Positions 37,876-46,114 of a stretch of 64,000 nucleotides of DNA are shown here, one piece after another (the first letter of the stretch is position 1; each line of letters opens with the position of its first letter). The stretch is from assembly GCA_000092065.1 (NCBI GenBank), contig CP000586.1. The stretch is one strand, 5' to 3'. The notes beneath the pieces are model-generated. The model was not told the origin of the DNA and did no database searches. It saw only the letters and a list, made by a program, of their open reading frames with translations. The stretch comes from Ostreococcus lucimarinus (taxonomy: Eukaryota). The position numbers were made by a program, and so were the translations under genes.

Positions 37876-40617
37876 CTATGCGCCGGCGAGAAGCTCTTCG
37901 ACGCGCTTTCTTTTCAACTTTTCCGTGATTTCATCCAACAGAAACCCATCCATGAGTGCGTTGACGTCGGAAATCGTCCCCTCGACGCGATGGTCCTTGA
38001 CTCGACCTTGCGCGAAGTTGTACGTTCGAATCCGTTCGCTTCGATCACCCGTACCGATCAACGAGCTTCGCAGCTCGCTTCGCTCTTTCGCCATCTTCTC
38101 GCGCTCTAAGTCGTACAATCGCGCCTTGAGCACGCTGAACGCCTTGGCTTTGTTCTTGTGCTGGCTTCGCTCGTCTTGGATCACGACTTGGATCCCCGTC
38201 GGCGCGTGCGTGAGGCGAACCGCGGAGTTGGTGGTATTGACGTGCTGACCACCAGCGCCGCTGGCGCGCATGGTGTCGATGCGAACATCCTCCTCTTTGA
38301 TGTCCATCTCCACCTCTTCCGCATGCGGAAGCACCGCGATGGACGCTGTGCTCGTGTGCACTCTGCCTTGCGTCTCCGTCTCGGGCACGCGCTGCACGCG
38401 ATGGACGCCGGATTCAAACTTCAACCTCCCAAATACGCCTTTGCCTAGAATTTCAGCGCTCGCTTCTCGAACGCCCTTACCATCGGTCTCACTCACGTTC
38501 AACGTATCGAACCTCCAACCGCTCTTTCTCGCGTGTAAGGCATACATGCGGAACAGCTCGGCGGCGAAGAGCGCGGCTTCGTCGCCGCCCGCGCCGGCGC
38601 GAACCTCTAAAATCGCGCCCCGATCGTCTGCGTCGTCGTGAGGCAAGAAAAGCAGCTGCAGCGCTAGCTCTTGATCGGGTAAATCGATGTCAACGGCGCG
38701 CAGCTCCTCGCGCGCGAGCTCGGCAAGCTCTTTAGAATCACCCCCGCTCGACGCGTCTCGCACCAATTCCTCGAGAGACGCCTTTTCGGCGCGAAGCTTT
38801 TTGACGACTTCATACTGCTCCGCGATGGGTTCAATTCGGCTGAGTTCCTTGTTTGCTTCGACAACGCGATCGATATCGACGCCTTGGCGCGAGATGAGCG
38901 CGATCAATTCCTCTCGTCGCCGCAGCGCGGCTTCGCCTCTTTCCTCCAAGGCGTCCGTCGAAGACGTCGAAGACGAGTACGACCTCGTTCCGGCCATCGC
39001 GCGCTCGAGCGTCGATCCGACGCGCACGAGCCGAGCTTCTCGGAATTTTGGCGCGATCATTTGCATACCAATGGGTAAGCCGCTCGCCCTCGAGCGCCCA
39101 GCGGGCATGGACATCGCGGGTAAACCCGCGAGCGATGCGGGCACCGTCATGACGTCGGCGGCGTACGTTTGCGCCGGACTCAGTGCCTCGACGTCGGAAA
39201 GTTTTGGTGCCGTCGACACGCTGGATGGTGTGAGCAACACATCTACGCCACCGCCTTCGCCGCCGAACACGTTTGTAAAGTCGTCCGACACCAATCTTCG
39301 AACCTTTTGCGCCTTTTCAAAGTATTCCGCCGCGCGCGCGCTGCTCAGGGCAAACGCGCCGACTGTGACGCGGCGACGAACCTCGTCGCCGAAACCCAAG
39401 CTTCGCGCCTTCGCGATGGCGCTTTGAAACTCTTCAGCAAGATATTCTTCTCGCGAAAGGTCACGCGTGAGGTCACCGTAGCGCATACCGTCGTAACGTG
39501 CGAGATTACTCGACGCCTCGGCCGGGGCGAGGACGTAGTAACACGGCAACGCCGCCTCGGTGTGCGGCATGTTGACGCGCACAATTTCCGCCCCGAGCGC
39601 CTCCATCGCGCGCACCATTTCGTTCCACGCGTCATACACTTCTTGAGTCAATTCGCTCACCGCGTATTCCTCTGGAACGCCCACGCGCAAGCCCTTCAAA
39701 GATGCTGCTTTTGGCGTCGTCTCGTCGACGAATTCGAGCGCCGCCGCGTCTAAATCCTCGCACCGCGCCACCGTCGTCGCGTCCAGGGCGTCCTCGCCCT
39801 GAATCGCCGCGAGCACGACCCCAGCATCACTCACCGTCCGCGCTAAAACCCCCACCGTGTCCAACGAGCTACAATACGACACGAGACCGAACCTACTCAC
39901 CCTGCCGTACGTCGGCTTCAATCCGACCGCGCCGCAATACGCCGCGGGCAATCGCACGCTCCCCCCCGTATCGCTTCCGAGCGCGTAAAACGCCGAACCG
40001 TTCACAACCGCCGCCGCGGACCCCCCGCTCGACCCCCCGCTCGACCTTTCGCCGTCCGACGACGTCGGATTCAGCGTCGTCTGCCCCGACGTCCGCGTGT
40101 GACTCCCCATGCCGAACTCGTCCATGTTCGTCTTCCCAATCAACACCCCCCCCAGCGCGCGCAACCGCGCGATCGCCGTCGCCTCGATCGGCGATTCGTA
40201 CCCCTCCAAAATCCTCGATCCCGCGCTCGTCGTCCCGACGTTCGCGCACAGATTATCCTTCGCCGCGAACGGGACGCCGTCGAGCGCGCTCGCTCGCCGC
40301 CTCGCCTCCCCATCCGCCTCGCCTTCCGTCTCGCCCCGCTCTCGCCGCGCGTCCGACGCGCGCGCGTCCGCCAGCGCGCGTCTCGCGTGCGCGTCTCGCG
40401 ACGCGGCGCTCCCGACGAACGCGCGCGACGTGAGCGCGTCCGCGTCGACGCGACGCGCGCAGTGCGAGAGCAGGTCGACCGCGGTCAGCGCGCGCGCGTC
40501 GAGCGCGCGCGCGGCTTCGGCGACGGTGCGCGGCCACGACGCCGCGGACGTGGACGCGGTCGCGTTCGAGCGCGCGCGCGCGACGCCGCGCGCGGCGCGT
40601 CGCGCGTGGACGCGCAT
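37876..40617 (-). CDS. gatA-prfA: Glu-tRNA(Gln) amidotransferase subunit A (GatA) fused in frame to peptide chain release factor 1 (RF1)
   Basis: A complete GatA (GVPFAAKDNLC...GKTNMDEFGMGS...GGSSGGSAAAV...GSDTGGSVRLPAAYCG...GLPIGMQMIAPKFREARL) and a complete RF1 (EVRAGAGGDEAALFAAELFRMY...RASGAGGQHVNTTNSAVRLTHAPTGI...RIRTYNFAQGRVKDHR) lie in one uninterrupted frame. I chose the first plausible ATG at 40617 (cat 40615-40617). The ORF-track extension to 41265 overlaps a plus-strand gene. Confidence 0.8.
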   Translation of the reverse strand: MRVHARRAARGVARARSNATASTSAASWPRTVAEAARALDARALTAVDLLSHCARRVDADALTSRAFVGSAASRDAHARRALADARASDARRERGETEGEADGEARRRASALDGVPFAAKDNLCANVGTTSAGSRILEGYESPIEATAIARLRALGGVLIGKTNMDEFGMGSHTRTSGQTTLNPTSSDGERSSGGSSGGSAAAVVNGSAFYALGSDTGGSVRLPAAYCGAVGLKPTYGRVSRFGLVSYCSSLDTVGVLARTVSDAGVVLAAIQGEDALDATTVARCEDLDAAALEFVDETTPKAASLKGLRVGVPEEYAVSELTQEVYDAWNEMVRAMEALGAEIVRVNMPHTEAALPCYYVLAPAEASSNLARYDGMRYGDLTRDLSREEYLAEEFQSAIAKARSLGFGDEVRRRVTVGAFALSSARAAEYFEKAQKVRRLVSDDFTNVFGGEGGGVDVLLTPSSVSTAPKLSDVEALSPAQTYAADVMTVPASLAGLPAMSMPAGRSRASGLPIGMQMIAPKFREARLVRVGSTLERAMAGTRSYSSSTSSTDALEERGEAALRRREELIALISRQGVDIDRVVEANKELSRIEPIAEQYEVVKKLRAEKASLEELVRDASSGGDSKELAELAREELRAVDIDLPDQELALQLLFLPHDDADDRGAILEVRAGAGGDEAALFAAELFRMYALHARKSGWRFDTLNVSETDGKGVREASAEILGKGVFGRLKFESGVHRVQRVPETETQGRVHTSTASIAVLPHAEEVEMDIKEEDVRIDTMRASGAGGQHVNTTNSAVRLTHAPTGIQVVIQDERSQHKNKAKAFSVLKARLYDLEREKMAKERSELRSSLIGTGDRSERIRTYNFAQGRVKDHRVEGTISDVNALMDGFLLDEITEKLKRKRVEELLAGA

Positions 40618-40651
40618 CGATCGAGCGAAGACGAGACGGTTGCGGCACACA

Positions 40652-41365
40652 ATGACGCTCGGCGTCGCGCGCGCCGCGGCGCCGTCGCGCGCGCGCGCCG
40701 CGGTCGCGCGCGGTCGTCGCGCGGTCGTCGCCGCGCGTCGTCGCTCGGCCGTCGCGCGCGCGATCGTCGCGCGTCGCGCGCGCGAGGTCGTCGAAGTCGA
40801 CGCCGAAGTCGACGGCGGGCGAACGAACGCCGCGCGAACGACCGTGGCGCTCGCGCTGACGCTCGCGCTGACGCTCGCGACGCCGCACGCGGCGCGCGCG
40901 AGGGAGTTCTTCCCGCAGTCGCCGCCCGACGACCCGATCGAGCCGTTCAGCGTGTTCGGGACGGTGGAGAAGGCGTTCAGCGTCGCGGTGCTCGACGAGA
41001 GTGGGTCGAAAATCGTGGCGAGAAAACGCGGCATGAGCGTGAAGTCGTGCGTGAACGTGGTGCCGGCGTCGAGACAGGGGCCGAGAGGACCGCCCGAGGC
41101 GCTGAGACCGTCGGCGTGCGCGGAGGCGGAGGCGCTGGGGGAGATTCGGGAGCAGCGGGACATGTTGAAGGCGTGCGCGCCGGCGTGCAAGGCGTCGTGC
41201 TCGAGGGCGATCGCGGAGTACGACGAGGGACAGAGGAAGACGACGGGATTTGGGTTAGATGCCAAGGCAAAGGAGCGAGTGTTGAAAGCGTGCGTCGTGA
41301 CGTGCGGGAAGGATTGCGAAAAGGCGGGAAAGTCGTACGATTACATCATACCGTTTCGATTTTGA
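40652..41365 (+). CDS. Small Cys-rich protein with presequence and hydrophobic signal-like segment
   Basis: ATG at 40652. R/A-rich presequence, then TVALALTLALTLATPHAARA, then eight Cys including paired CxxxC motifs (CAPAC, CVVTC). Ends YDYIIPFRF. Confidence 0.4.
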   Translation: MTLGVARAAAPSRARAAVARGRRAVVAARRRSAVARAIVARRAREVVEVDAEVDGGRTNAARTTVALALTLALTLATPHAARAREFFPQSPPDDPIEPFSVFGTVEKAFSVAVLDESGSKIVARKRGMSVKSCVNVVPASRQGPRGPPEALRPSACAEAEALGEIREQRDMLKACAPACKASCSRAIAEYDEGQRKTTGFGLDAKAKERVLKACVVTCGKDCEKAGKSYDYIIPFRF

Positions 41366-41421
41366 TTGGCGTCGCGCGCGCGGATTCTAGAAGCGTTGTA
41401 AATCTATTAATATGCGTTGAT

Positions 41422-44345
41422 CTAAGGTTCGCGAGACGATTCGCTGGACGCTGAAAACTCCGCGAGCGCGGCAGCGTACGCCTCTTTCGCCGTCTTGGCA
41501 TCGCTCTCGTACTTGGCTTTGCGTTCTGGATCGAGCGAGGCCCACCGCTCGCCGAGCGCCTTGGCGACTTCGCCGACTTTAAAGGTTGGATTTTCCGCCT
41601 TGACTGACGCGCGTTCGTCCGCCGAGAACGCGAAAAAGGCCGTGAGCGGTTTTTTCATTCCTGGAACTTCCACCTTGGGCTTCGGCGCCTTCTTTGCCTT
41701 TGGATATTTGGCTTCCTTCTTTGCCTCTGGCTCCTTCTTCGGCTTTGGTTCCTTCGCCTTCTTCGGCTCCTTTTTCGCCTTGGTCTTTTTCGAAGCGTAT
41801 CGACCGCGCGTGCGCGGTGGGCGCTCGGCTTTTTTGCGCAACAATTCGACAGCTTCGTCGATATCGACGTTTTCGACCGCACCGACGCGCTTCAATACGG
41901 TTTTCCCGATGGATGCTCTGAGAACTTCGCCGGCGACTTCGGACGCGACGTACCAACCAAATGGGCCAATGTTGAGCGAAACGGGCGCCTGCGTCACCGG
42001 ATGCACACCAAGCACTTTGGGGTATTCAAACATCCCGATGGCTTCCGCGAGAGTGATCTTGTTGACGTCCTTGCCGATGTTTGCCACTCCGACGCGACGA
42101 GGTGCAGGCGGTTTCTTCGGTTTCTTTGCCTTCTTCCCATCCTCTGCCGGCGTCGCCGCCGCGAGCTCTTGAACGCCGAGTTGTAAATATGGGCCATAAG
42201 GACCAAGTCGGAGAGAAATTTCTTTTCCGGTCGCTGGATCAACGCCAAGCACCTTGGGATACATCACTGCGTCGGGATCTTCGACGGTGGCGACGAAATC
42301 TGGATCATCCGTGTCGCTCACGATGGCGCCTCGAATCGGATGCAACGGGTGCGTGAAGCCGCATTCAGGGTAGCGACTGCACCCAATGAATCCACCAGCT
42401 TTTGATGGCTTTAAACCAAGTCTGCCAATTTTACAGCTCGGGCATCTCCGTGCTTCGCTCACGACGTCGTCGGAATCGCTTAATTCGGCGACTTGATCCG
42501 GGTTGATGTGCACGTGGCCGTCATACGTCGCCTCGCCGAAGAGATGCTGCCCGAGCTTCTCATCGAGAGCGTCGATGACTTCGCTCACGCGCAGCTCCGA
42601 AAGCGACGATATTTTATCCCTAAACGGCGTCCACCACTCCTCGAGTAACGGTTTCCATTGTACTTGTTCGCTCGTGATGTCGTCAAGCTTGTGTTCCAAA
42701 TCCGCCGTGAAGCCGTAATCGACGTACGTCTCAAAGTAATTCGTGAGAAACGCAGAGACTAGACGACCGCGAGTCGTGGGAACGAGTGCGGCACCTTGCT
42801 TTGCGACGTACTCACGCTGCGCGAGCACCTTTAAAATCGGTGCGTACGTGCTCGGTCGCCCGATGCCTCGTTCTTCGAGCGCCTTGACGATGGAACCATC
42901 CGTGTAGCGAGGCGGCGGCGACGTTTTGTGCTCTGTCGCCTCGCACCCGAGACTCTCACCGTCAGTTTTCACAGACAAACCTTCGCCTTCACCAAGAATA
43001 GGTAACCACGCGTCGTCTGAAGGTGGCGCAGCTTCGGGTCTGGACGTTCGATACGCCGCAAGGAATCCCGGAAACTTGAGCCTGTGTCCGTTCGCCTTGA
43101 GCTTTAAGTCGTTCTCTGCGGAGGCAATTTCAGCCGCTATGCGATCGGTAAGCGCAGGTGACATTTGTGACGCCATAGTGCGCGCCCAAATCAACGCATA
43201 AAGTCTCGCTTCATCGCTGCCTGGTCCTATTTGCCGCGCAACTTGCGCGGGAAGCCGTCCAGCCTTGGTAGGTCGAATCGCTTCGTGCGCCTCTTGCGCA
43301 TTCTTTTGCTTCTTCTTAAAGTATCTGGGCGATTCAGGCACGTACTCATCACCAAAAAGCTCACCAGCGGTCGTACGCAAGCTTTCAATCGCATGTGGGG
43401 CGACGTACGTGCCATCTGTGCGCATGTACGTAATCAAACCTTCGCCCGTGCCCGCGCCCTCGTACAGTCGTTGCGCCGCCGACATCGTCCTCGACGCACC
43501 GAAACCGAGCTGCTTGTTCGCTTCCTGCTGCATCGTCGACGTCGTGAACGGTGGTCCACTCGTACGCTTGGCTTCGCTGTGCTTCACCTCCACCACCCGC
43601 AGCGTATCGCATTCTCGCACGCGCTTGGCGTACGCCTCGGCTTCGTCGTTCGAAGCGATGGTAAACTTTCCAAGCTTAGCGCCATCGACGTGCGTCAAAG
43701 CGGCGTCAAACGTAGAGCCGTCTTTTGAACTTAAACTCGCCTTCACCGTCCAATACGGCTCGCTCACGAACGCCTCCACCTCTTCCTCTCTTTCGCACAC
43801 TAATCGCAGCGCCACGCTCTGCACGCGACCCGCGGACAGGCTCACGCTCGACGGCAACTTACGCCACAGTAGCCCAGAGAGCGTGAATCCGAATAGATAA
43901 TCCAGCGCGCGTCGCGCCATGTACGCATCAACCATCGGAACGTTAATGTCCCGCGGAGAACCCACCGCGTCGAGCACCGCTGTTTTCGTAATCTCCCCAA
44001 ACGTCACGCGCTTGACGTCCAAGTCGTCGCGCAACAATTTCTTCTCCCGAAGCACCTCGAGCAAGTGCCACGAGATAGCCTCACCCTCTCGGTCTGGATC
44101 CGTCGCGAGCAGCAGCACATCCGTCTTCTTCAACGCCTCCGTGATGTCTCGCATCGCCGCCTTTTGCCTCGACGTCGACGTCCACGTCATCGCGAACGAT
44201 TCCTCCGGCCGCACGCTTCCCTGTTTATTCACCAGATCACGCACGTGCCCGTAGCTCGCCAGCACTTTCGCGTTCGCACCCAAATACTTCTCGATCGTCT
44301 TCGCCTTGGCCGGAGACTCGACGATCATGAGCGTCCGTTTCCCGT

Positions 44346-44385
<40 letters not shown>

Positions 44386-44604
44386 GCCGCTCGCGACCGC
44401 GCGCGCCGTCGCCGCCGTCTTCGTCGTCTCGCCCCATCCACCCTCGCGTCCTCCCCACGCGATCCCGCGCGTCGCGCGCGCGCCGACGCTCGCGACGAGC
44501 CGTCGCACGCCGCCCGCGCGCGCGCGCGCCGTCCACATCGCCGCCGACGACTGCGAATTCCCAACCGACTCCGCGCGCGACGCCGCGGCGCCACTCGCGC
44601 GCAT
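41422..44604 (-). CDS. topA: DNA topoisomerase I, type IA (bacterial TopA-like, organelle-targeted) with a C-terminal HMG box
   Basis: TOPRIM start RTLMIVESPAKAKTIEKYLG, Topo IA core, Zn-ribbon CPSCKIGRLGL...CSRYPECGF, then a Lys-rich linker and an HMG box (KKPLTAFFAFSADERASVKAENPTFKVGEVAKALGERWASLDPERKAKYESDAKTAKEAYAAALAEF). Candidate ATGs are at 44820, 44766, 44604 and 44538. The first two overlap the divergent SEC12 start, so I chose 44604. Confidence 0.85.
44345..44384. repeat. (CGT)n/(ACG)n trinucleotide repeat encoding a 12-residue poly-Thr tract
   Basis: cgtcgtcgt... x13 lies inside the topoisomerase presequence. Similar (ACG)n tracts are at 232-251, 54001-54037 and 57153-57182. Confidence 0.85.
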
Positions 44605-44764
44605 CAACCGCGCCCGCGGACGCGCGCCGCGCGCGGCGACCTCCCCGCGCGTCGCCGCCGCGCGCGGCGCCGCTCGTCCGCGCGGTGCGCGCGCGCGAAT
44701 GCGGCGAACGTCGCGACGCGCGTCGATTCGCGACTCGCCCGAACATCGCGACGCGCGCGCCGCC

Positions 44765-46114
44765 ATGTTCGACCGCGCGAGCGCGCGCGCGCGGCGCGCG
44801 AAGAAGTACGGCCAGCCCATCTACGCCGGCGCGTGGCTGGACGATCGCACCGCGCTCCTCGCCGGGGGCGGCGGGAAGAAGTCGAGCGGGATTCCGAATC
44901 GAATCTTGATCGCGTCGTGCGAGCGTGGCCCGCACGGAACGACGCTGGCGGACGCCGAGGCGTGGACGCACACGGACGAAGACGCGCCGCAGCGGCTGGC
45001 GGTGCACCCGGGGCGCGAACACGTGGTGTGCGCGTTCGGGGGGACGCTGGGGGTGTTTCGAGCGCGGCGAGGCGCGAACGACGGCGCGGACGAGGGCGCG
45101 TCGTCGTCGGGAACGAACGGGGAGGCGCGGTGGACGATCGAATCGTGCGCGAGCGCGTTGGGACTGCCGAATCGCGTGCACGTGACGCCGGATGAGCGGG
45201 AGATTAAGTGCGCGGCGTTCGACGCGGAGGGCGCGCGGTTGGCGCTGGGATTGGAGAGCGGGGAGGTAAAGATTCTAGCGTGGCCGTCGTTGGAGGTGGA
45301 GAAAGAGCTCGGGGCGCACGAGAAAGGGGCGGTGACCGATATCGCCTGGGCGCCCGACGGCGATGGGCTGTTGACGACGTCGGCGGAGAACGCGACGGCG
45401 AGTAACATCGGTCGCGGCGCCGCGGTGTGGAGCGTCGAGCGCGGCGAACGCGTGCTGACGTTGTTCGACGAGTCCATCGTGAAGAAGAGCGGGGTGCGGA
45501 ACGTGGTGTTTCGCGGCGCGGCGTACGGCCGAGGCACGAACGCGTCGACGAGCGTGGCGTGGACTGGGGTGAATCTAGACGGCGAAGGTTGGGTGGTGAA
45601 GTGGGACGTCGCCACGTGGAAAGTCATCAGCAAGGCGCGAGTGTTCAAAAGCGAGCCCATCTCCGGGTTCGCGGTGAACGCGCAGGGTACGCTCATCGCC
45701 GTCGGAAGCTCCGAAGGCGAAGTAAAAGTCGTGGACGCGCAAAAGTTTACGCTCATTAAACCGGTGAAGAAGGCGCACATGATTTTCGTCACCACCATGG
45801 CGTGGAATCCCAAAGGAAACGTCGTCCTCTCGGGCTCCGCCGACGCCAGCGCTTTGGCGACGAAGATCGAAAAGCAGTCATGGACCTTGCGTTTGGTGCT
45901 CTGGTTCACCGTGTTCGTGATGTTGATCGTCGGCTGGATAACGTTGCTGTCGACAATCTTCCCCGACCCGCTCGCGCGCGCGCTCGAAGACGGCGATTAC
46001 GCCCGCGCCGCGCAAGCCGTCGCCGACTATTTCAGCGAGACCAAGATCCCGGCCGCGACGTTAGAAACGATCGAGGACGCCGTCGCCGGCGTCTCCGCCC
46101 GCGACGAGCTTTAG
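44765..46114 (+). CDS. SEC12: SEC12/PREB-like WD40 guanine-nucleotide exchange factor with C-terminal TM anchor
   Basis: KYGQPIYAGAWLDDRTALLAGGGGKKSSGIPNRILI resembles the Sec12 N-terminus ([21 protein letters not shown]). WD blades follow, then TM WTLRLVLWFTVFVMLIVGWITLL. The only in-frame ATG ahead of the conserved start is at 44765. Confidence 0.6.
   Translation: MFDRASARARRAKKYGQPIYAGAWLDDRTALLAGGGGKKSSGIPNRILIASCERGPHGTTLADAEAWTHTDEDAPQRLAVHPGREHVVCAFGGTLGVFRARRGANDGADEGASSSGTNGEARWTIESCASALGLPNRVHVTPDEREIKCAAFDAEGARLALGLESGEVKILAWPSLEVEKELGAHEKGAVTDIAWAPDGDGLLTTSAENATASNIGRGAAVWSVERGERVLTLFDESIVKKSGVRNVVFRGAAYGRGTNASTSVAWTGVNLDGEGWVVKWDVATWKVISKARVFKSEPISGFAVNAQGTLIAVGSSEGEVKVVDAQKFTLIKPVKKAHMIFVTTMAWNPKGNVVLSGSADASALATKIEKQSWTLRLVLWFTVFVMLIVGWITLLSTIFPDPLARALEDGDYARAAQAVADYFSETKIPAATLETIEDAVAGVSARDEL

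Follow-up and report, generated by a model that had tools for sequence, protein, structure and literature searches.

A continuous GatA–RF1 gene in Ostreococcus and Bathycoccus and its possible processing as a composite organellar precursor

Composite mitochondrial precursors and the GatA–RF1 gene

In yeast and other fungi, N-acetylglutamate kinase and N-acetylglutamyl-phosphate reductase are encoded together as the Arg5,6 precursor, a single open reading frame (ORF) with one N-terminal presequence and two complete enzymes. In yeast, the mitochondrial processing peptidase (MPP) splits Arg6 from Arg5 at an internal RSY motif (residues 523-525), a cleavage that has been mapped experimentally, with subsequent trimming by Icp55 being predicted (Friedl et al., PMC8734313). 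MPP motifs are likewise found at the junctions of the composite precursors Atp25, Etp1, Rsm22-Cox11 and rice RPS14 (PMC8734313), and several precursors of this kind involve factors associated with the mitoribosome (PMC5063612, PMC8734313). The subject of the present analysis is a gene for two organellar translation proteins located in a 64,000-nucleotide stretch of the genome of the green alga Ostreococcus lucimarinus (GenBank assembly GCA_000092065.1, contig CP000586.1), hereafter referred to as the window. Translation of its minus strand between positions 37876 and 40617 yields 913 codons and a stop, with no internal stop codon, in which subunit A of the Glu-tRNA(Gln) amidotransferase (GatA) is followed by a class I peptide chain release factor (RF1).

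An earlier, sequence-only reading of the window had claimed that a full GatA runs stop-free into a full RF1, and this description holds: the frame is uninterrupted, both halves are complete, and the motifs quoted there (GGSSGGS, GGQ, PET and RIRTYNF) are all present. The accompanying claim that both proteins act in organellar translation is supported too, the genome being that of a member of the Mamiellophyceae. In Ostreococcus and Bathycoccus, GatA and a mitochondrial-type RF1, unrelated proteins of organellar translation, share a single uninterrupted gene.

By its presumed mechanism, GatA–RF1 comes closest to composite mitochondrial precursors of the Arg5,6/Atp25 class. It shares with Arg5,6 the single N-terminal presequence (putative in GatA–RF1), the two complete enzymes in one ORF and the short junction bearing an R-2 motif, which reads RSY in both and which in Arg5,6 is conserved across the species possessing the fusion (PMC8734313). 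The two differ in that the Arg5,6 enzymes act one after the other in a single pathway, whereas GatA and RF1 serve different steps of translation, and in that the cleavage of Arg5,6 has been demonstrated experimentally, whereas that of GatA–RF1 is predicted and the internal presequence-like stretch is weak. Further parallels are Atp25 of S. cerevisiae (Rsf plus a stabiliser of the Atp9 mRNA), Rsm22-Cox11 and Etp1 of S. pombe, and rice RPS14-SDHB, all of which combine functionally unrelated mitochondrial proteins that are separated after import, although they represent other protein pairs from other lineages. In the literature searched we found no composite precursor containing GatA or a release factor, and none from a green alga.

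The junction motif and its possible cleavage

Evidence bearing on the fate of the protein comes from the linker between the two halves. In the alignment of orthologues, Tyr547 is the sole column between Glu538 and Leu574 that is at least 90% conserved, and every junction variant conforms to R-x-Y/F or R-x-x-Y followed by S, T, A or H (RSY|SS, RRTY|TT, RRSY|ST, RRLY|ST, RASY|ST, ARGY|ST, KRGY|AT, RRMY|ST, RKMFY|ST and RRSY|HS, and RLF|AS in the P0005 lineage). The residues following Tyr547 in O. lucimarinus are SSSTSSTDALEER. The R-2 consensus of MPP consists of Arg at position -2 (or -3), an aromatic residue at +1 and S, A or T thereafter (PMC8734313). A motif of the same type closes the N-terminal presequence of several orthologues, right in front of the conserved beginning of mature GatA (RRSY|ATWP, QRAY|SNVP, SR(A/T)L|ST.HWP including SRAL|STTHWP, and RRF|SG), and in an AlphaFold2 model of low quality the R-x-Y motif lies over an unstructured segment between the last helix of GatA and the first helix of RF1. 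The junction motif agrees with the MPP consensus and is conserved among the fused orthologues.

Because a conserved MPP-type motif occupies the linker, separation of the halves after import is suggested, and on balance we lean, if cautiously, towards a composite (tandem) organellar precursor that is cut into GatA and RF1 once imported. We infer that the gene is translated as a single polypeptide, that this precursor is imported and that MPP cleaves it at the R-x-Y site. Ostreococcus and Bathycoccus have extremely compact genomes, and a single fusion event in their common ancestor may have placed the RF1 gene directly behind GatA, with loss of the GatA stop codon, the RF1 start codon and most of the RF1 presequence; the cleavage site of that presequence and the S/T-rich mature N-terminus of RF1 would have been left over as the linker. 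The whole polypeptide would be made in the cytosol, with the GatA presequence directing its import, after which the matrix MPP would cut at R545-S546↓Y547, possibly followed by removal of the Tyr by an Icp55-type activity. The freed GatA would then assemble with GatB and GatC, and the freed RF1 would terminate translation at UAA and UAG codons on mitoribosomes.

Several points weigh against such processing. The need for an internal presequence-like stretch is stressed by Friedl et al. (PMC8734313), and the region 518-547, evaluated in rather crude 18-aa windows, has a net charge of +2 to +3, one or two acidic residues and a hydrophobic moment of 0.15-0.39, being thus weakly presequence-like. 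The Arg residue shifts between -2 and -3 relative to the Tyr (as in RASY and RKMFY), and in P0005 the nearest Arg belongs to the alternative RLF|AS site. The R-x-Y motif could be conserved for a reason other than cleavage. A search for mRNA-like contigs encoding the exact protein returned contigs that all look genomic, carrying multiple genes and no poly(A). Finally, should the precursor enter the chloroplast as well, MPP would be absent there. It is conceivable, if rather unlikely in our view, that the protein stays uncleaved or is cleaved in mitochondria only, which would leave GatCAB with a tethered release factor, or RF1 carried into chloroplasts on a dual-targeted GatA.

The main rival of the cleavage model, a stable bifunctional protein of ~100 kDa that keeps RF1 attached to GatA, and through it to GatCAB, at all times, draws on the continuous ORF kept across the Ostreococcus–Bathycoccus divergence, on the intact catalytic motifs of both halves, on a linker whose shortness, flexibility and richness in S and T are shared by many inter-domain linkers, and on the weakly presequence-like character of the region upstream of RSY. 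Such a protein could co-localise or co-regulate the supply of Gln-tRNA(Gln) and termination, or the fusion could be merely tolerated. It leaves unexplained, however, why the sole conserved feature of the linker is an MPP-type R-x-Y-S/T site, and GatA and RF1 are not known to be linked either functionally or physically. No solved chain in the PDB covers both halves, and a 55-kDa N-terminal appendage residing in GatCAB might hinder docking of RF1 in the ribosomal A site.

The phylogenetic distribution also argues against a general functional coupling. A word-indexed search retrieved 16 clusters at 90% identity combining the Amidase, PCRF and RF-1 domains, down to 45% identity. In an exhaustive HMMER search covering 1.84 billion representative proteins, both domains came together in just three representatives at 50% clustering, P0001 (1939 bits), P0013 (1151 bits) and P0339 (726 bits); matches from 450 bits down comprise a single half only, and a fusion outside the Bathycoccaceae-like clusters was not found among these representatives. 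Two entries of the HMMER table that seemingly extended into the C-terminus of GatA and were considered as distant fusions, P0372 and P0404, proved to be stand-alone RF1s with ordinary presequences. The sequence-only reading had interpreted the architecture as a Rosetta-stone fusion coupling Gln-tRNA formation to translation termination. Such an interpretation builds on a known interaction or shared pathway and on recurrence in independent lineages; here no such link is known, the fusion is confined to three Bathycoccaceae-like clusters among the representatives searched, and the R-x-Y motif points to separation. All in all, we consider the stable bifunctional protein possible but doubtful.

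Completeness of the two halves and the nature of the linker

Positions of the features are collected in table 1. The start of the ORF deserves a comment, as the ORF finder extends it in frame upstream to 41265; this extension overlaps a divergent ORF on the plus strand. The ATG at 40617 is a credible start because the divergent ORF begins at ~40652 and the orthologues start at an equivalent Met. On both strands of the region 40250-41400 long ORFs occur in several frames, with a G+C content of 76-80% around 40250-41000.

Table 1. Features of the GatA–RF1 gene of O. lucimarinus (coordinates refer to the window).
Feature	Coordinates	Strand	Basis or remark
Whole ORF, GatA–linker–RF1	37876..40617	-	stop codon 37876-37878; 100% identical to public cluster P0001
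N-terminal targeting-peptide-like segment, aa 1-27, MRVHARRAARGVARARSNATASTSAAS	40537..40617	-	charge, low pLDDT, precedes mature GatA start
GatA body, aa 28-541, amidase-signature enzyme	38995..40536	-	Pfam, TIGR00132, solved relatives
Amidase signature GGSSGGS, aa 194-200	40018..40038	-	invariant in alignments A1 and A2
Met541 codon at junction	38995..38997	-	present in O. lucimarinus, not conserved
Linker A542-T554, AGTRSYSSSTSST, ~13 aa	38956..38994	-	between last GatA helix and RF1 helix 1
R545-S546-Y547, candidate MPP R-2 cleavage motif (R-x↓Y-S)	38977..38985	-	conservation, likeness to Arg5,6
RF1 body, aa 555-913, mitochondrial/alphaproteobacterial-type class I release factor	37879..38955	-	PRK00591, nearest relatives
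P745-E746-T747, PxT stop-codon recognition tripeptide	38377..38385	-	P745 and T747 invariant
G789-G790-Q791, GGQ peptidyl-tRNA hydrolysis motif	38245..38253	-	invariant in A1

GatA serves as the glutaminase subunit in GatCAB, the Glu-tRNA(Gln) amidotransferase, and the N-terminal half of the protein is a bona fide GatA. Pfam recognizes the Amidase domain at aa 101-530 (386 bits, 2.5e-115). The top NCBIfam match is TIGR00132 (gatA), which covers profile positions 48-464 of 466 with 462.2 bits, a score slightly below the curated equivalog cut-off of 481.1, with the next amidase family scoring 240 bits. Comparison with the PDB gives 325-345 bits for GatA chains (the best being 3al0/2gi3 with 345), as opposed to ~150 or less for other amidases. 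Residues K120, S196 and S220, which we take to be the Ser-cisSer-Lys catalytic triad, lie in invariant columns of alignments A1 and A2. The identity to stand-alone GatAs of plants, algae, fungi and bacteria amounts to 42-51%, and stand-alone GatAs from other eukaryotes and bacteria terminate 3-20 residues past the invariant L537-E538, so the GatA half is complete to its natural C-terminus. In its length, amidase signature, catalytic residues and C-terminus it is thus like a stand-alone organellar GatA, from which it differs by the RF1 added C-terminally. A stretch of ~21 residues (the LTRDLSREEYLAEEFQSAIAK region; aa 381-401, ~39415-39477 on the minus strand) is kept in Ostreococcus and in stand-alone GatAs and is missing from the Bathycoccus orthologues; the AlphaFold2 confidence is low over residues 370-426.

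The N-terminus resembles a targeting peptide. When the whole protein is scanned in sliding 18-aa windows, the first 18 residues, none of them acidic, constitute its most basic amphipathic window: their net charge of +6 is the highest in the protein, and their hydrophobic moment is 0.50. Residues 1-27 show pLDDT values below 50 in the AlphaFold2 model and precede the conserved WP(R/T)T with which mature GatA begins in the orthologue alignment. Genes for the partner subunits GatB and GatC are not within the window, to which this search was confined. In land plants GatCAB serves the organelles because an organellar GlnRS is absent (PMC11670086).

The C-terminal half matches PRK00591 (prfA) with 425.8 bits, exceeding the cut-off of 400, over profile positions 6-345 of 347, compared with 265 bits for prfB; the Pfam domains PCRF and RF-1 occupy aa 575-760 and 767-877, respectively. 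Among solved structures, bacterial RF1 scores 307 bits and human mtRF1a 264 bits. The PxT tripeptide marks RF1 specificity (UAA/UAG); in the orthologues it reads PET, PAT or PQT, never SPF. The half thus resembles mitochondrial (mtRF1a-type) and alphaproteobacterial RF1s in the PxT and GGQ motifs and in the coverage of all RF1 domains. Its nearest stand-alone relatives are Micromonas RF1 (~60% identity) and then alphaproteobacterial RF1s (53-56%, e.g. those of Magnetospira and of alphaproteobacterial metagenome-assembled genomes), and no cyanobacterial RF1 occurs among the named matches within the best 120. Being closest to these proteins in a ranking of matches, the RF1 half is best assigned to the mitochondrial rather than the plastid type. 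Plastid RF1 has been reported as ubiquitous in plastid-bearing species (PMC3472500), and a separate plastid factor therefore presumably exists.

The mitochondria of Ostreococcus and Bathycoccus reportedly use UGA stop codons, yet no mitochondrial RF2 is encoded (Duarte et al. 2012, PMC3472500). The GatA–RF1 fusion occurs in just these two genera, which we regard as a coincidence only. A connection between the fusion and this puzzle of UGA without mtRF2a was considered and rejected: no mechanistic link is apparent, and the RF1 half has canonical PxT and GGQ motifs and nothing RF2-like.

The fused RF1 differs from stand-alone Micromonas RF1 in having no start codon or presequence of its own and in being embedded behind GatA. 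Micromonas-like stand-alone RF1s open with a presequence of the classical kind, MRRALATIAADAARRARGSF|ASTS, from which a Ser-rich stretch leads to helix 1, and this presequence holds RGSF|ASTS, a motif of the same type as that in the fusion linker. The published M. commoda model (CP001576.1, 366 aa) starts with MTPALERRLE and lacks a presequence, its N-terminus being apparently truncated; at the corresponding locus (L008, 7401-8000) the frame is open 5' of the model, with an in-frame stretch that begins MALRRAFGAAARS and includes MALRRAFGAAARSVASSRDAT, which looks like the real presequence-bearing start. Two further RF1-like proteins, P0220 (481 aa, from a JGI contig) and P0340 (477 aa, from an unlabelled source), have the PCRF/RF-1 core duplicated internally, the segment around YESGVHRVQRVP occurring twice in each; either chimeric assembly or a genuine tandem duplication may account for this.

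The segment DALEERGEAALRRREEL already belongs to helix 1 of RF1: its counterpart in the alignment is the N-terminal first helix of stand-alone Micromonas RF1, and the AlphaFold2 model shows it as a helix. Given this alignment and the natural C-terminus of GatA, both proteins are complete and the linker measures only ~13 residues (A542-T554), not the 25 proposed in the sequence-only reading. The model, computed from a 14-sequence alignment, is poor (mean pLDDT 61.5, pTM 0.52) and was used for secondary-structure boundaries near the linker: it places the last GatA helix at 527-544 and RF1 helix 1 at 554-576, with residues 544-554 as coil of pLDDT below 50. We counted 33 distinct junction strings among 157 fused proteins, and 25 distinct linkers of 10 lengths (20-33 aa, measured from E538 to the RF1 helix-1 anchor), all of them in frame and stop-free; the length differences are partly due to polymorphic Thr/Ser runs inside one clade. 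For divergent pairs, dN/dS (Nei-Gojobori) is 0.10-0.22 in GatA, 0.07-0.14 in RF1 and 0.28-0.44 in the linker, a 98%-identical pair shows only three linker changes, and the GC content at third codon positions (GC3) is 0.77 in the linker versus 0.75 in the whole ORF. In view of the in-frame length variation, dN/dS below 1 and coding-like GC3, the linker behaves like coding sequence under weak constraint. The in-frame poly-Thr (T5 to T10, TTTVTTTTVTT) and poly-Ser polymorphism is seen in P0011/P0177/P0178/P0184 and P0015/P0201/P0204; found directly behind the conserved R-x-Y and inside individual clusters at 90% identity, it amounts to a coding microsatellite.

These data bear on the possibility that the locus makes two proteins separately, by an internal promoter or start (at Met541 or a non-AUG codon), splicing or termination, with the long ORF being incidental. 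The junction expected near 38997 indeed coincides with the codon of Met541, so that O. lucimarinus has an ATG exactly there, and the NCBI model of this species ends GatA at 539; moreover, GC-rich DNA easily stays open, stops being expected at ~3% per codon by a rough estimate. The suggestion that this Met might start a separate RF1 is not borne out by the alignment, in which Met541 is confined to the O. lucimarinus group and a few others, with a nearby Met in P0012 and Bathycoccus, whereas in O. tauri, P0004, P0007, P0009 and P0011 the first Met past the junction already lies within the PCRF domain. Since Met541 is not conserved, it is unlikely that RF1 is generally initiated on its own, and we rejected this possibility; initiation at the following Met would yield an RF1 devoid of domain 1 and of a targeting signal. 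Against separate proteins stand also the 'partial' status of the NCBI model, which ends without a stop codon, the at least 10 linker lengths all kept in frame with dN/dS and GC3 typical of coding sequence, and the annotation of the O. tauri and B. prasinos genes as single-exon fused coding sequences (CDSs). We hence hold this scenario to be quite improbable.

Distribution, annotation and significance of the fused gene

The fused gene is present at the loci of O. tauri (L011), a 98%-identical relative (L012), three Ostreococcus-like lineages (L014-L016), B. prasinos (L017) and a second Bathycoccus-like lineage (L002), and is annotated as a single-exon CDS in O. tauri (L011, 5001-7577) and B. 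prasinos (L017, 5001-7805). All these loci and the window share a neighbourhood consisting of a topoisomerase IA-HMG gene with a small divergent gene, the fusion, and genes for DnaJ and PDDEXK_6 proteins, and the fusion is therefore orthologous and ancestral to the family. Synteny in other Mamiellophyceae, which the sequence-only reading had put forward as a check, thus speaks for the fusion. The same reading had cautioned that resequencing might reveal a missing stop or a frameshift at the junction. Dozens of independent assemblies and three annotated genomes contain the ORF: identical or nearly identical ORFs are found in JGI, ENA, Logan and NCBI assemblies of many samples, representing three genera or clades and independent projects, so that an assembly or sequencing artefact is effectively refuted and merits hardly any credence.

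In Micromonas, RF1 is stand-alone both in M. commoda (CP001576.1) and on a Micromonas-like metagenome contig. We considered whether GatA and RF1 are still adjacent there and dismissed the idea, as RF1 is flanked by a cNMP-binding or unannotated gene and a cation ATPase, with no GatA nearby. Two neighbours of the fusion in the window may be mentioned. The ORF at ~40652-41365 on the plus strand (237 aa, no Pfam match) is divergent and lies only ~35 bp from the GatA ATG, and a small divergent gene like it is called at every orthologous locus. The 1132-aa ORF at 41422-44820 on the minus strand encodes a bacterial-type topoisomerase IA (Toprim, Topoisom_bac, a Zn ribbon and C-terminal repeats) with a C-terminal HMG box, an architecture also found beside the fusion in O. 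tauri, B. prasinos and metagenomic relatives, which makes it a second conserved combination of domains in this family.

In public databases the protein is 100% identical to a cluster containing XP_001418458.1 (O. lucimarinus CCE9901), a model that corresponds exactly to residues 1-539 and is flagged 'partial'. As the DNA has no stop codon at that point, the model has been ended artificially and the reference annotation is wrong or incomplete. The RF1 half is absent from XP_001418458.1 or modelled separately. The O. tauri protein (CEF98353.1/XP_003079853.2, 858 aa) is called 'Peptide chain release factor' in NCBI, whereas UniProt (A0A090N3M0) names it chloroplastic/mitochondrial GatA; other public fused models are OUS48467.1 from O. 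tauri (899 aa) and CAL6391480.1 from B. prasinos (934 aa, 'unnamed protein product'), and the product name in IMG is 'aspartyl/glutamyl-tRNA amidotransferase A subunit/peptide chain release factor 1'. The description of the O. tauri genome by Derelle in 2006 reportedly names gene fusion as a mechanism of compaction. The searchable literature yielded no paper that discusses a GatA–RF1 fusion or links GatA with RF1, and the words fusion, fused, GatA and amidotransferase are absent from a survey of organellar release factors covering O. tauri, Micromonas and Bathycoccus (Duarte et al. 2012, PMC3472500). The earlier impression that the architecture had not been described is thus borne out for papers only, since fused models of O. 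tauri, B. prasinos and IMG were already public. The architecture is known to databases, inconsistently named, mis-modelled in O. lucimarinus and apparently undiscussed in the literature.

With one and the same O. tauri protein named as a release factor in NCBI and as GatA in UniProt, one of the two proteins can be miscounted in orthology tables and in surveys of translation factors of organelles. Should the protein stay uncleaved, or carry RF1 into chloroplasts, it would represent a lineage-specific rewiring of organellar translation in Bathycoccaceae. If it is cleaved as we favour, it would be a green-algal composite organellar precursor, a class documented so far mainly in fungi and by rice RPS14, and the first found with a release factor or a GatCAB subunit, so that the idea of 'MPP as tailor' would reach the green lineage. 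The case would then illustrate how genome compaction in picoeukaryotes can strip a gene of its start codon and presequence and leave just the processing site. We see in it a neat testable case and a correction of annotation rather than a new principle, and O. tauri being genetically tractable, the prediction is cheap to test.

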